A DNA stretch of 64,000 nt, from positions 248,235 to 312,234 of the forward strand of contig CAWFHP010000009.1 in the NCBI GenBank assembly GCA_963815675.1, given 5' to 3'. Positions 60,587 to 64,000 of this stretch are shown here, piece after piece. Within the stretch, counting starts at the first letter, position 1; each line of letters starts with the position of its first letter. Both the position numbers and the translations under genes were made by a program. Source of the DNA: an uncultured Acidobacteriota bacterium. GTDB taxonomy: Bacteria > Acidobacteriota > Vicinamibacteria > Marinacidobacterales > SMYC01. The notes under the pieces were generated by a model. The model saw only the letters and a list, made by a program, of their open reading frames with translations, was not told the origin of the DNA and searched no databases.

Positions 60587-61902
60587 CTATCGTTGCGCGC
60601 TGCCTTGGACTTCGTGCAGGCCCTCGCTTGGACTGGATGGCGCCGCGGGTTTCGAAGGGCACCACTCTACGAACGCGCTGCCATGCGCATCGAGCGCCCG
60701 AAGAAGGGTTGCTTTGTCGTGGGCTGGCAACTCCAGCGACTCGAGCAATTCATAGAAAGTGTGGGGGCGAATCGCCTGCGATGGCGCTGCCAGACGCTTC
60801 AAGAAATCGAAGAAGGGCTTCTTGACGGACGGTACGATATCCAGCTTCGCCGGTAGCGCTCCGTTGTGTACGGGCGTTCTCAGGAACATCGCGAGAGCGC
60901 GCAGGAGTGCGAATTCTTTTGTATAGATATCGTTCACGGTCACGACGTTGTTTCGTTCCGGGTTGAGCGACAACGCCGTTCGATAGAGAAACTCCAGCGC
61001 GACGAGGATCCAAGGGAGGAGTGTGACACAGCGGTAGAAGTCTCGCGCCGTGGCAATGGTGAGAGCCCCGCTCACGAGGAAACGTTGACGAACGCTGCAC
61101 GACATCGCGATCAGGATCCGGTTGAGACGTAGCTCCCCGGCCTCGTCGAGGGGAGCGGAGTGCAGACCAAAGAATTCGGCCATCTGTTCGTGCATGCGGC
61201 CGATGGCGGCGCTGTCCAGGGGCGGGTGAAGCGCTCGTCGGTCGCAGTCTGGCGGTAGTTCTTTCTCGGTTTGCTCGGACTGAAAGAGCAAATAGCCTCG
61301 GAAGTCTCCGGGCTCGAAATAGTGGCTCGCCTGATCTCGGATGGATCGGCCGAGTGAGAGCACGCTTTCTCGAAGCGGCGCGAGATTGGTCTCGTGCTGA
61401 TCGCTCGGTTCCCGCTCCATTGTCGCGAGTATCGATTCGGAGAATTCTTCGAGGATGGCCCCGTAGGCGATCTCTTTCGCCGAGGGTCCACTATAGGTTT
61501 TGAGGCCGAGCGTGCACAAGTTGTGCACATCCACCAAAACATGTCTGTCCGCAGGCAAAGAGCTTGTTGATCGGGAAAGAGGCGGCAGAGGAGCGGCTTC
61601 ATTTCCCTGCCCATTTCACGCTCGATGGTGCAAAGATTCTCCCGATCCAGTAAGTAGCAGCCGGACCGGAAATTAGCGACACGAACATCAGATTCCGTTC
61701 CCGCGGCACGGCTGAGAAAAGGGCCGAGCGCGGGATAGACACTCAAAATCTGTACGAGCTCTGCCTGAACTTCAAGGGCAAATCCATTTCCGTTGCAACA
61801 GTTGTCCTGGCACGTCGCGCAGTCATAGGCGAGCAAGCGATCCGGAAATACGAAGTCAATCGTTTTGTGATTCGCCGTTTTCGGCACGCGGCTCCCCTTC
61901 AT
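60587..61902 (-). CDS. CxxCxxCC (YkgJ-like putative Fe-S/Zn-binding) domain fused to a C-terminal domain of unknown function; apparent frameshift near 61540
   Basis: MKGSRVPKTANHKTIDFVFPDRLLAYDCATCQDNCCNGNGFALEV...CYLLDRENLCTIE... (ORF 61111..62289 frame, ATG comp 61900-61902 overlapping the upstream stop as ATGA). Continues in ORF 60587..61558 for about 320 aa with no recognisable motif. Confidence 0.5.
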
Positions 61903-62999
61903 AGGGTCGAAAGTTCCGAAGAATAGGTTTCGTCGACCCGTCTCTTCGCCGATAGCTTGAGCCGCGCCAACTGCGTGGCCCAACGCGTCGATCGCAGGAA
62001 GCTGTGAGCGAGCTGGAGAGGCCATCGGGGTACTCGGGTGAAAGCGCCCCCGACACCAACCGTCGCCTCGATAGGGTTCGGCCAGTGGTGGCGAATCTCT
62101 CGAAAGAGGCCTTCCGGATTGCGAAGAAAGCTCGCTATCGGCAGCCGAGGGCGAAAGGTCGACCCCCACTGCTCTCGAACGGCGCGCGCGACCCAGCTCG
62201 ACAGAGTGTACGGTCTGTACGCCAGCGGCGTCTTGTCCAAAGAGGCGCCGAGCAGTTGATGGGACAACATGAGCGCGCAGCGTAGCCATCCCGATCGACG
62301 GGAGCTCCTACCCCAAAAGCGGTCCCAGTCGAAGTCGCGGGGGAGGCACTCCAGAGCCGCCCCGATATCGCACAGCCAGAGAGGACGGCAGATGCCGTGG
62401 CTCAACATATGCACGCATAGTAGGTGAAGGTGATCCTCCGGTCCAAAGACGCGTGCTTCCACGTCGCCCACCACCGTTGTCTCCGAGCGAGCGTACAGTT
62501 GATCCATGCTGCGACCTTCGAGGCCAGGGCATCCGGAGTGAAGGTCCACCGGGGCGGGAGGGATGCCGGAGCGGAACAGCGCCGCGTGTGCCACCGGGTA
62601 CTGCTCGGGCCTCACATAGAGATCGATGTCTCCGTATGGACGGAGCCCCGGCTCGGGGTAGTAGCGGGACGCCGCCCAGCCCTTCGCCAGGAGGGGCTCC
62701 ACGCCGCTCGCTCGCAAGCGCGTCAGAGCGTCTTCGATTTGTTTCACGTGGAGGGCGGCTTGTACCGAATGAAGCCGGTAGGCCTGTCGAAGCTCGAAAG
62801 CTTCCCGAGAATTTTGGAGCGTGGCGTCCCCTCCGAGTGACAGACGTCGCCACGCCAGAGCGCCGACACCACCTGCCAGCAAAAGGGGGTTGATGTCTGC
62901 GAGGACGGTACGGGGGAGCGTATAGGGCGGTGGTGGTACACGCCATGCGCCCACGAGCATCGCAGCCACGAGGCGGCCGAGCTCCGCACCCGCTGTCAT
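61899..62999 (-). CDS. uncharacterised nucleotidyltransferase (NTP_transf_5/PF14907-like) of the kind found in lasso-peptide clusters
   Basis: 366 aa. ...PYGDIDLYVRPEQYPVAHAALFRSG... is the characteristic D-x-D-L-(L/Y)-V region of this family. Confidence 0.55.
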   Translation of the reverse strand: MTAGAELGRLVAAMLVGAWRVPPPPYTLPRTVLADINPLLLAGGVGALAWRRLSLGGDATLQNSREAFELRQAYRLHSVQAALHVKQIEDALTRLRASGVEPLLAKGWAASRYYPEPGLRPYGDIDLYVRPEQYPVAHAALFRSGIPPAPVDLHSGCPGLEGRSMDQLYARSETTVVGDVEARVFGPEDHLHLLCVHMLSHGICRPLWLCDIGAALECLPRDFDWDRFWGRSSRRSGWLRCALMLSHQLLGASLDKTPLAYRPYTLSSWVARAVREQWGSTFRPRLPIASFLRNPEGLFREIRHHWPNPIEATVGVGGAFTRVPRWPLQLAHSFLRSTRWATQLARLKLSAKRRVDETYSSELSTL

Positions 63000-63002
63000 A
63001 AT

Positions 63003-63485
63003 CTACTGGCAGCTCCCACCCAGGCACATTTTTTTGCAGCCTTTGCCACACGGCGTTCCATCTGAAGCACCGGTGCAATTCCCGACACAGGTCTGGGCGG
63101 AGGCCGCGGTGGGGGCGATGATGGACGTCACGGCTGGCAGAAGAAGAGCGAGGCCGAACGCCCTTACGAGCTCGCGCCGGGAACGCGTCCCGACGTCGTT
63201 CGGAGGCGCGACACGTTCCTCCAGGAGCCGAGCTCTCCCGAGTCGGCGTAACGCGAACCAGACGACGTCCTCGGAAACGGGTGAGCCGAGCTCATCGGCA
63301 AGAAGCTCGGTGATGCGAGCGACGTCGGTTTTCCCGTCGCTGTGCCGCCAGACGAAAGCCGCTATGCGATTCAGACAGTGGGCCCGGTAGCTCTCGAGAT
63401 CGTAGACCAGGACCTCGTCGGGCAACTCCTGAATCAAGAGGCCTTCATCACGCGCGATCGGCGGAGCGGCCGACGGGCGGCTCAT
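63003..63485 (-). CDS. PqqD-like RiPP recognition element (RRE) protein with hydrophobic segment and Cys-rich C-terminal tail
   Basis: LLIQELPDEVLVYDLESYRAHCLNRIAAFVWRHSDGKTDVARITELLADELGSPVSEDVVWFALRRLGRARLL is PqqD-like. It is followed by LALLLPAVTSIIAPTAASAQTCVGNCTGASDGTPCGKGCKKMCLGGSCQ in the same frame. The start is chosen at MSRPSAAPP. Confidence 0.55.
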   Translation of the reverse strand: MSRPSAAPPIARDEGLLIQELPDEVLVYDLESYRAHCLNRIAAFVWRHSDGKTDVARITELLADELGSPVSEDVVWFALRRLGRARLLEERVAPPNDVGTRSRRELVRAFGLALLLPAVTSIIAPTAASAQTCVGNCTGASDGTPCGKGCKKMCLGGSCQ

Positions 63486-64000
63486 TCCTTTTCGTCGTGT
63501 CGTCGTCATTCTGCGCCACTGTCCTCAACAAGAAATCCACCGTCTCGTCGGCTTCCCCGCGCCGGCCCGCGAACACCCGCGTGCTGGCAACGATTTCGCG
63601 CAAAGTCCGGAGAGAGCGCTCGGGTGCTTTCCGTGCAGGAACCGTATTGGCCAAGAGCGCGAGCACCGCTCGGCCCGGCGAAAGCCTCCGCGGTCGAAAG
63701 CGCGCACCTTCCTCGTACTGCGATACAGCAACGAGGCCGACCGGCAACGGTTTCGCGCCGACGACGCTGCCGAACGCTTCCGGGTTGCACGTTCTCGGCG
63801 GCTCTTGTCCGTCTCCCCGCAGCGACAGCGGCTTGGGGTACGGGTGGACACGACCGCGCTCGTCGAGCACGGCAAATTCGTCGGAGTAATAGGTTGCCCC
63901 GGCCTTCAACAGCGCCGAGACCAACGTGGTCTTGCCGCTGAAGCTCCGACCCGGCAACACGATGGCTCGTCCGCGCCACCCCACGACACCAGCATGAACA
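63448..64000 (-). CDS. HPr kinase/phosphorylase C-terminal-domain-like P-loop protein (lasso-peptide-cluster kinase type), 5'-truncated by window end
   Basis: RAIVLPGRSFSGKTTLVSALLKAGATYYSDEFAVLDERGRV has a P-loop plus the HprK-like fold. The listed ORF starts 16 nt from the window edge, so the real N-terminus is probably outside the window. Confidence 0.5.
   Translation of the reverse strand, partial: VHAGVVGWRGRAIVLPGRSFSGKTTLVSALLKAGATYYSDEFAVLDERGRVHPYPKPLSLRGDGQEPPRTCNPEAFGSVVGAKPLPVGLVAVSQYEEGARFRPRRLSPGRAVLALLANTVPARKAPERSLRTLREIVASTRVFAGRRGEADETVDFLLRTVAQNDDDTTKRNEPPVGRSADRA

Follow-up and report, generated by a model that had tools for sequence, protein, structure and literature searches.

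A putative RiPP-like cassette of Acidobacteriota whose predicted precursor carries its own RRE domain

The stretch of DNA considered here, called the window, comprises 64,000 nucleotides of contig CAWFHP010000009.1 from an uncultured Acidobacteriota bacterium. Its minus strand carries, at positions 60587-64000, four tightly packed co-directional genes. The first gene encodes a kinase-like protein. The second gene encodes a protein in which a RiPP recognition element (RRE; RiPP, a ribosomally made, post-translationally modified peptide) is fused to a signal-like segment and a cysteine-rich tail. The third and fourth genes encode a nucleotidyltransferase and a protein distantly resembling FliB, the flagellin lysine methylase. 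On balance, and with moderate confidence, this operon is read as a self-contained RiPP-like cassette that is widespread in Acidobacteriota and whose precursor carries its own RRE.

Genes of the operon

The four genes and the parts of their products that matter for this reading are listed below, in the direction of transcription.

63448 to beyond 64000, minus strand: kinase-like open reading frame (ORF); C-terminal 183 codons, no in-frame stop before the window edge
63003..63509, minus strand: fusion gene ("PqqD"), 168 aa; RRE, linker, twin-arginine signal-like segment and six-cysteine tail
63222..63461, minus strand: RRE/PqqD domain of the fusion protein, aa 17-96; three beta-strands and a three-helix winged-helix unit in the AlphaFold2 model
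63096..63182, minus strand: signal/leader-like segment of the fusion protein, aa 110-138; S-R-R-E-L-V-R, a hydrophobic stretch with LPxVxSIxAPT, and A-S-A
63006..63095, minus strand: hypervariable Cys-rich tail of the fusion protein, aa 139-168, QTCVGNCTGASDGTPCGKGCKKMCLGGSCQ; six Cys, three Lys, Thr at position 2; proposed core
61899..62999, minus strand: nucleotidyltransferase gene, 366 aa; PF14907, GDIDL catalytic motif
60587..61902, minus strand: FliB-like CxxCxxxCC gene, ATG at 61902; 437 aa after frame correction
61541..61579, minus strand: frameshift sites in the FliB-like gene; a surplus base somewhere in 61571-61579 (TTTCCCGATC) and a second one in 61541-61543 (ACATGTTTT)

An earlier note on this DNA had described four co-directional, overlapping or abutting minus-strand genes that run off the window edge. 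The ORF coordinates confirm this arrangement, and the kinase ORF indeed reaches position 64000 without a stop. The note had also pointed out an ATGA in which the nucleotidyltransferase stop overlaps the start of the fourth gene, and this overlap was located at 61899-61902. The stop of the fusion gene lies 3 nt from the nucleotidyltransferase start. The kinase ORF overlaps the fusion-gene ATG by 62 nt (63448-63509), both in the window and in L001, a near-identical 2-kb contig. In the related loci L087 and L088, the kinase stop lies 1-2 nt ahead of the fusion-gene ATG. Because the L087 and L088 kinases end before that ATG, it appears that the window lineage lost the usual kinase stop and gained a tail of ~20 aa. 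The four genes are not chance ORFs, since they have many conserved homologs and their order is conserved.

The kinase is truncated by the window edge, and its full length (~289 aa) was read from L001; full-length kinases of this kind are ~275-290 aa. No Pfam family matched it, and a sequence search of the PDB returned no match to HPr kinase/phosphorylase (HPrK/P). The best match in NCBIfam was to HprK-related kinase A (TIGR04352); against this model the full-length L001 protein scores 66.5 bits (E=2e-18) and that of locus L002 scores 57.3 bits. The match is confined to profile positions ~40-162 of 280 and stays well below the curated equivalog cutoff of 200 bits. The kinase has no transmembrane segment. 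It nevertheless keeps a catalytic motif, HAGVVGWRGRAIVLPGRSFSGKTTLVSALLKAGATYYSDE, which reads H-x14-G-x4-GKT-x15-DE. The general form of this motif, H-x14-G-x4-GK[ST]-x15-D[DE], has exactly the spacing found in BsfK, a peptide kinase of a Bradymonas lasso-peptide cluster, and is kept in 84 of 100 family kinases as well as in the window kinase. In BsfK the motif residues are H148, G163, K169, S170, D186 and D187, and their importance was established by mutagenesis (PMC10368454). The position of BsfK G166 is occupied by Phe in the window kinase. The protein is thus best described, from its sequence, as a putative HPr-kinase-like P-loop peptide kinase that lies below the curated family cutoff.

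The nucleotidyltransferase was identified with less ambiguity. It matches PF14907 (NTP_transf_5) with E=2.6e-28 and 99.7 bits, where the threshold is 31.2. The sequence GDIDL is present in the window protein, and GD[ILV]D is present in most family members. An enzyme of this type, PsmN, is encoded in a lasso cluster and adds a hexose to a phosphate in pseudomycoidin (PMC8498205). In profile scans of all four proteins, the domain assignments of the earlier note hold with caveats: PqqD and PF14907 are matched above threshold, the kinase matches TIGR04352 below its cutoff, and PF03692 is matched by more distant family members of the fourth protein and not by the window protein itself.

The fusion protein and its hypervariable tail

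The fusion protein matches PF05402 (PqqD) with E=3e-6 and 27.9 bits, above the cutoff of 23.4. Its score against the PqqD family peptide chaperone model (TIGR04353) is 14 bits, where the cutoff is 35. The AlphaFold2 model of the protein has a mean predicted confidence (pLDDT) of 84.6. A Foldseek search found two lasso B1 proteins, TbiB1 (5v1u, 5v1v) and 6jx3, as the best PDB matches of the RRE, with target-normalised TM-scores of 0.73-0.74 and a probability of 1.0. The matched lasso B1 structures were solved together with their leader peptides. In both its PF05402 match and its fold, the fusion protein has what identifies a B1-type RRE of a lasso cluster.

At least 98 homologs of the fusion protein were found among the matches listed, most of them covering about 90% of the query. 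A scan of a species-representative genome collection, in which the best match to the window protein is 56% identical, yielded 258 relatives, mostly acidobacterial. An alignment of 50 of the 98 listed homologs revealed an uneven pattern of conservation. The mean majority-residue fraction is 0.67 in the RRE, drops to 0.33 in the linker, and rises again to 0.64 in the segment that spans the arginine pair, the hydrophobic stretch and AxA. In the tail it is 0.25 at non-Cys positions and 0.56-0.99 at Cys positions. In other words, two conserved blocks precede a tail of which little more than the cysteine framework is held.

What is the second conserved block? R111 and R112 are invariant in the alignment. 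The strict pattern [STN]RRx##[KRQ] (#, hydrophobic residue), typical of twin-arginine translocation (Tat) signals, is present in 108 of 126 sequences, AxA in 123 of 126, and an uncharged hydrophobic region in 97 of 126. Among all proteins of the operon, the region of aa 110-138 is the one hydrophobic segment, and in the AlphaFold2 model a strand is predicted at aa 127-131. The segment logo reads [VIL]xxPx[VI]xS[IL]xAPTxAxAx[ST]C, and the spacing from its first Pro to the first Cys is 16-17 residues in 93 of 117 sequences. If the protein were cut after AxA, a Pro would stand at -14 and a Val or Ile at -12, as in the YxxPxL motif of lasso leaders, and a Ser or Thr would stand at core position 2. 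The segment resembles two things at once, a Tat/Sec-type signal in an internal position and a leader of the lasso type. It has the consensus, hydrophobic region and AxA of a Tat signal, but not the N-terminal position, as the motif starts at residue 110, past a folded domain. Cleavage is suggested because AxA, with a Pro at -6, is nearly universal.

The tail of the window protein has the framework C-x3-C-x8-C-x3-C-x3-C-x4-C, and many tails in the family have C-x6-C-x5-CC-x3-C-x3-C, which resembles an inhibitor cystine knot (ICK). A Ser or Thr directly precedes the first Cys in 86 of 126 sequences by direct count, and in 104 of 117 at motif position +15. Two copies of the fusion gene are present in 12 loci of the genome-collection set. 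Sequence identity was compared in nine same-locus paralog pairs and amounts to 44-83% for the leaders but 21-47% for the tails. A conserved leader with a hypervariable core, paralogs, and co-located modifying enzymes are general marks of RiPP precursors, and by these marks the fusion protein is a predicted precursor. It is the likely substrate rather than a free-standing chaperone, because it has its own signal-like segment and cysteine-rich tail.

Some family members carry other tails. Two longer-tailed members, P0092 and P0095, match PF13884 (Peptidase_S74 intramolecular chaperone), and a third, P0096, matches PF26780. The tail of P0102 matches PF17557 and PF08116, which we take to be animal-toxin families.

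The FliB-like gene and the lysine content of the tails

Each intact homolog of the fourth gene encodes one protein, of 421-432 aa. The window sequence changes frame twice over about 30 nt, and between these shifts the third frame encodes the conserved INKLFACGQT. Once both extra bases are deleted, the gene yields a 437-aa protein that has no stops and is collinear, without gaps, with the 432-aa homolog P0001, to which it is 75% identical. The public gene call for the window's fourth gene (P0002) begins after both insertions. A division into two separate genes was rejected, since the homologs are single proteins and the third frame encodes INKLFACGQT. Programmed frameshifting is unlikely as well, because two +1 shifts would be required, related genomes read through, and repeat assemblies vary in their frameshifts.

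Is the gene then a true pseudogene in a cassette that is decaying in this genome, so that the fourth component is without function here? Two separate one-base insertions do break the frame, and the gene call starting past them fits such a loss. However, the otherwise uninterrupted collinearity with P0001 argues for either a recent change or an assembly error, and the source contig measures 533 kb. Furthermore, four assemblies of one species (L083-L086) differ from one another in frameshifts of the kinase, nucleotidyltransferase, FliB-like and PhyH genes, a pattern typical of long-read consensus errors. Both insertion sites in the window hold 4-base palindromes (GATC, CATG), and they may be systematic long-read basecalling errors. 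Short palindromes such as GATC and CATG are often methylated. Because the L083-L086 assemblies show differing cassette frameshifts, an assembly error is favoured over a pseudogene, and decay of the gene is considered rather unlikely.

The earlier note had called the fourth protein a CxxCxxCC-domain protein; its motif is CxxCxxxCC, and neither the window protein nor its close homologs match PF03692 even at E<=1. In the wider family, which comprised 499 cluster representatives at E<=0.001 in an exhaustive search, PF03692 is matched by 45 of 64 aligned members (best E 3.4e-7). The FliB model NF038110 is matched by 44 of the 64 (best E 9.3e-8), all of them under the cutoff; proteins of the window lineage score 15.5-19.9 bits against this equivalog model, short of its cutoff of 85. 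Eight Cys are invariant or nearly so (C20, C23, C27, C28, C73, C82, C97 and C120), and they include a CX2CX3CC motif. FliB is a [4Fe-4S], S-adenosylmethionine (SAM)-dependent lysine methylase with a CX4CX3CC motif and eight conserved Cys (PMC8598068). The AlphaFold2 model of an intact homolog, P0003, has a pLDDT of 91.6, and a structure search with it found no solved structural relative. By sequence, the fourth protein is thus probably a distant relative of the FliB flagellin lysine methylase.

FliB from Salmonella and the fourth protein have further traits in common. Both have an N-terminal Cys motif that ends in CC, a length of about 400 aa, a mostly helical and cytoplasmic character and a lysine-rich presumed substrate, and both lack a solved structural relative. 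They differ in the motif itself (CX4CX3CC in FliB, CX2CX3CC here) and in the partner, which is flagellin for FliB and would be a small Cys-rich peptide for the fourth protein.

What might such an enzyme act on? Among cassettes, the FliB-like gene is an occasional extra whose position varies between lineages. After removal of redundant tails, two or more Lys were found in six of seven tails from loci with the FliB-like gene and in seven of 45 from loci without it (Fisher p=5e-4). No other residue differed between the tails with and without the gene. Because the Lys content tracks the FliB-like gene, the tail behaves as a substrate of the co-encoded enzymes. The earlier note had suggested that the large fourth protein could be a new tailoring component. 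The lysine tracking lends support to a tailoring role.

A gene for PhyH, an Fe/2-oxoglutarate dioxygenase, follows the FliB-like gene in L002 (11416-12273) and in L083-L086 (~13200-14150), which are the full-length relatives nearest to the window. It may be a further lineage-specific tailoring enzyme. PhyH is absent from the window, where the housekeeping gene proC is present instead, on the same strand and after a 254-nt gap. The plus-strand operon at 54580-59507, which converges on proC, seems to have no connection with the cassette; its products are an ABC ATPase, an ABC-2 permease, a GldG-like protein (ABC_transp_aux) and a DUF4340 protein. In 59400-64000, scans for promoters and terminators did not rise above background, and no tRNA genes were found in the window.

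Relatives of the cassette and its possible function

The linkage of the genes was followed through 137 fusion-gene loci, many of them on short contigs. A kinase gene immediately precedes the fusion gene in 83 of them, a nucleotidyltransferase gene immediately follows it in 100, and 70 have both neighbours. The neighbours that recur across 80 genomic and 79 metagenomic loci were polysaccharide-biosynthesis genes, tetratricopeptide repeat (TPR) proteins, Peptidase_C25, MauE-thioredoxin fusions, and tsaB/rimI. Among other neighbours within 6 kb, no family was matched by more than three of 130 representatives. A gingipain-like Peptidase_C25 lies ~2.4 kb downstream in 20 loci (for example at 3558-5297 in L024 and at 2168-3775 in L026), and MauE-thioredoxin fusion genes lie upstream in 10 loci. 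The former is a candidate processing protease and the latter a candidate disulfide-forming partner.

The fusion gene is also found apart from its partners. Neither kinase nor nucleotidyltransferase is present within 10 kb of it in L027, L030, L057, L063 and L080 (20-kb loci). Two metagenome-assembled genomes have two loci each: in DATMAG01 both loci (L008 and L036) lack one cassette gene, and in DASRDU01 one locus (L045) has the full cassette and the other (L073) the fusion gene alone. Such separate extra fusion loci resemble orphan precursor genes. PEP-CTERM proteins adjoin the cassette or orphan copies of the fusion gene at 1761-2693 in L087 and at 8893-9651 in L027. The metagenomic locus L118 has a kinase, a FliB-like gene and a nucleotidyltransferase at 4426-7664 with no fusion gene between them. 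Another kinase follows at 9215-10843, together with a fusion gene that has a tail outside the usual pattern.

How would the cassette work? In the model proposed here, the fusion protein is the precursor, composed of a lasso-B1-like RRE, a leader-signal with the motifs SRRxLV[KR], LPxVxSIxAPT and AxA, and a hypervariable core with 6-8 Cys. In a first step in the cytoplasm, the RRE would recruit or orient the kinase, which would phosphorylate a hydroxyl residue. Core position 2, where a Ser/Thr is conserved (T140 in the window), is the best candidate site by analogy with BsfK. That kinase phosphorylates Ser3 of its core and is stimulated by the RRE (PMC10368454). Phosphorylation of a C-terminal Ser in the manner of paeninodin was considered as the general site and rejected, as only 8 of 126 tails end in Ser. 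In a second step, the PF14907 nucleotidyltransferase would put a nucleotide-activated group, such as a sugar, on the phosphate, as PsmN does. In a third step, specific to this lineage, the FliB-like [4Fe-4S]/SAM enzyme would modify core lysines, probably by N-methylation. Finally, the twin-arginine/hydrophobic/AxA segment would send the tail across the membrane, the tail would be cut off after AxA, and its Cys would form disulfides.

Several points weigh against this model. The cassette is usually found at the 3' end of polysaccharide-biosynthesis clusters, a setting that fits cell-surface assembly as well as it fits a peptide product. A literature search found no RRE fused to its substrate, and because such a fusion is unprecedented in the searched literature, the role given to the RRE is a guess among action in cis, action in trans and enzyme recruitment. 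A signal peptide behind a folded domain of ~100 aa is unusual, and phosphorylation or glycosylation before membrane export is not an established process for peptides of this kind. Few of these tails have the C-terminal Ser that most lasso kinases use, as noted above. The kinase and FliB-like proteins are far under the curated family cutoffs. The FliB-like gene may be inactive here because it is frameshifted twice in the window, and about six independent lineages underlie the lysine correlation. Within the model, the stronger claim is more doubtful: that the cassette defines a new RiPP-like class with a precursor-RRE fusion, a phospho-linked modification at the Ser/Thr by the first Cys, FliB-type Lys methylation and signal-peptidase-like release. 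This claim is put forward tentatively. If it holds, a precursor would here be fused to an RRE for the first time, and the FliB family would have its first substrate other than flagellin.

The main competing view denies that the fusion protein is a precursor. The protein would instead span the membrane once and act as an adaptor or regulator in the assembly of cell-surface polysaccharides or proteins. Its RRE, in the cytoplasm, would bind a partner peptide or protein, its small disulfide-rich domain would be periplasmic, and the kinase and nucleotidyltransferase would act on another substrate, such as a partner protein, a glycan or a lipid carrier. The genomic setting gives this view substance. 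The cassettes of Pyrinomonadaceae and Blastocatellia run in the same direction as clusters of GT1/GT4, WecA-like PF00953, epimerase, Polysacc_synt_2, Wzy_C and Wzz/GNVR genes and stand at the end of these clusters, and PEP-CTERM proteins adjoin the cassette in L087 and L027. An arginine pair followed by a hydrophobic stretch would equally fit a positive-inside membrane anchor, and PF14907 enzymes could act on sugars. However, in the window lineage the cassette lies outside polysaccharide clusters. Tails that keep nothing except a Cys framework, together with diverged multi-copy loci, are typical of secreted peptides, and the near-universal AxA with its Pro suggests a cleaved product. Moreover, the tail lysine content follows the FliB-like gene, and the kinase keeps the motif of lasso peptide kinases. 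An adaptor role is therefore regarded as rather unlikely.

Another competing view is that of the earlier note, in which the four genes are accessory genes of a lasso-peptide cluster whose cyclase, leader peptidase and 40-60-aa precursor lie just past position 64000. Its premise is sound, as the trio of kinase, nucleotidyltransferase and PqqD-type RRE does recur in lasso clusters and is documented for phosphorylated ones (PMC8498205, PMC10368454), some of them from Acidobacteriaceae. The RRE fold is nearest to lasso B1, and the Pro at -14 and the Val/Ile at -12 from AxA recall YxxPxL. The expected genes were sought in the corresponding DNA of relatives, which is not the window's own, and none was found upstream of the kinase. 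In L087 (fusion protein 92% identical), a PEP-CTERM protein and a fragment of an acidobacterial duplicated orphan permease (ADOP) lie upstream; the ADOP fragment speaks for the window being of acidobacterial origin. The upstream genes are a DUF6036 pair in L088 (nucleotidyltransferase 91% identical), divergent TctC, thiamine pyrophosphate (TPP) enzyme and TctA genes in L083-86 (fusion protein 78% identical), and divergent YceI, GT2 and AsnB genes in L002 (fusion protein 70% identical). In other words, the kinase starts the operon in four related genomes, and the genes before it are mutually unrelated and not of lasso type. Since the kinase comes first in L087, L088, L083-86 and L002 and the DNA before it is unrelated among them, the operon appears to be autonomous.

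The wider set of relatives gave the same answer. Neither PF13471 nor a lasso-type PF00733 recurs in 165 loci. PF00733-type genes are present in about 12 of these, at variable distance and on either strand, and all five full-length ones inspected begin with the MCG of glutamine-dependent AsnB, which supplies its nucleophile. No PF13471 or other leader peptidase was seen in the recurrent neighbour clusters or Pfam marks of related loci, and PF13471 was not among the top 25 families in a census of the 130 neighbour representatives within 6 kb. A separate small precursor would have no space in the operon, whose genes abut or overlap. The tail itself (QTCVGNCTG...) is non-acidic at core positions 7-9, where a macrolactam requires Asp or Glu, and the RRE is fused to a Cys-rich tail, unlike that of lasso B1 proteins. 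Judged from the upstream DNA of relatives, the proposal that the operon flanks a lasso-peptide cluster is not supported and is considered very improbable.

The preferred reading, a RiPP-like cassette with a precursor-RRE fusion, can be placed among known systems by what is shared and what differs. The phosphorylated lasso clusters of paeninodin (PadeK), pseudomycoidin (PsmK/PsmN) and Bradymonas (BsfK/BsfB1/BsfN) have the same kinase motif and spacing, a PF14907-type enzyme and a B1-like RRE. Their leaders agree with the leader-like segment of the cassette at two positions, -14 (Pro) and -12 (hydrophobic). Phosphorylation in the Bsf system is RRE-stimulated and targets a Ser close to the core start. 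Unlike these clusters, the cassette has no cyclase, B2 peptidase or separate precursor in any relative examined. Its RRE is fused to the presumed substrate, its 6-8-Cys core lies behind a twin-arginine signal-like segment, and its usual setting is that of polysaccharide clusters. The HPr-rel-A system (TIGR04352 and TIGR04353) likewise has a kinase beside a PqqD-family gene and gives the best NCBIfam matches for the kinase. However, the kinase reaches 57-67 bits where the cutoff is 200, and the fusion protein has an extension of ~70 aa that is missing from the 74-position TIGR04353. The cassette is, on these sequence grounds, a likely relative and not a member of the HPr-rel-A system.

More distant parallels come from outside these kinase systems. 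In precursors with nitrile-hydratase-like and Nif11-like RiPP leaders, a large conserved domain at the N-terminus precedes a short core that is hypervariable and rich in Cys, and a genome encodes several paralogs. In contrast to them, the cassette leader is an RRE fold, its junction is AxA and not GG/GA, and no peptidase-containing ABC exporter is linked to it. Tat signals and knottin-type peptides resemble the fusion protein in the [STN]RRx-hydrophobic-hydrophobic-[KRQ] motif, the moderately hydrophobic stretch, AxA and the ICK-like frameworks of many tails. The fusion protein differs from them in that its signal is internal, ~110 residues from the N-terminus, and in that the window tail has another framework; its export and disulfides are predicted. 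Literature searches found no description of the fusion architecture or of a lasso-less kinase/transferase cassette. Every component is from a known superfamily, and the architecture itself is undescribed in the searched literature.

What would the cassette mean if this reading is correct? RREs are seen either as portions of the enzymes or as free-standing chaperones whose ligand is the leader of a separate precursor. A family in which the RRE is fused to the substrate would change genome mining, as precursor finders seek small ORFs and lasso rules demand a cyclase. It would also mean that the kinase/nucleotidyltransferase tailoring pair of lasso clusters works outside lasso biosynthesis. FliB-type [4Fe-4S] lysine methylases, which are poorly understood and lack a solved structure, would gain a tractable second substrate. 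The placement of the cassette at the ends of polysaccharide clusters raises the possibility of a link between peptide modification and cell-surface glycan assembly. For the Acidobacteria, which are abundant in soil and chemically little explored, the products would be disulfide-rich and possibly knottin-like peptides.

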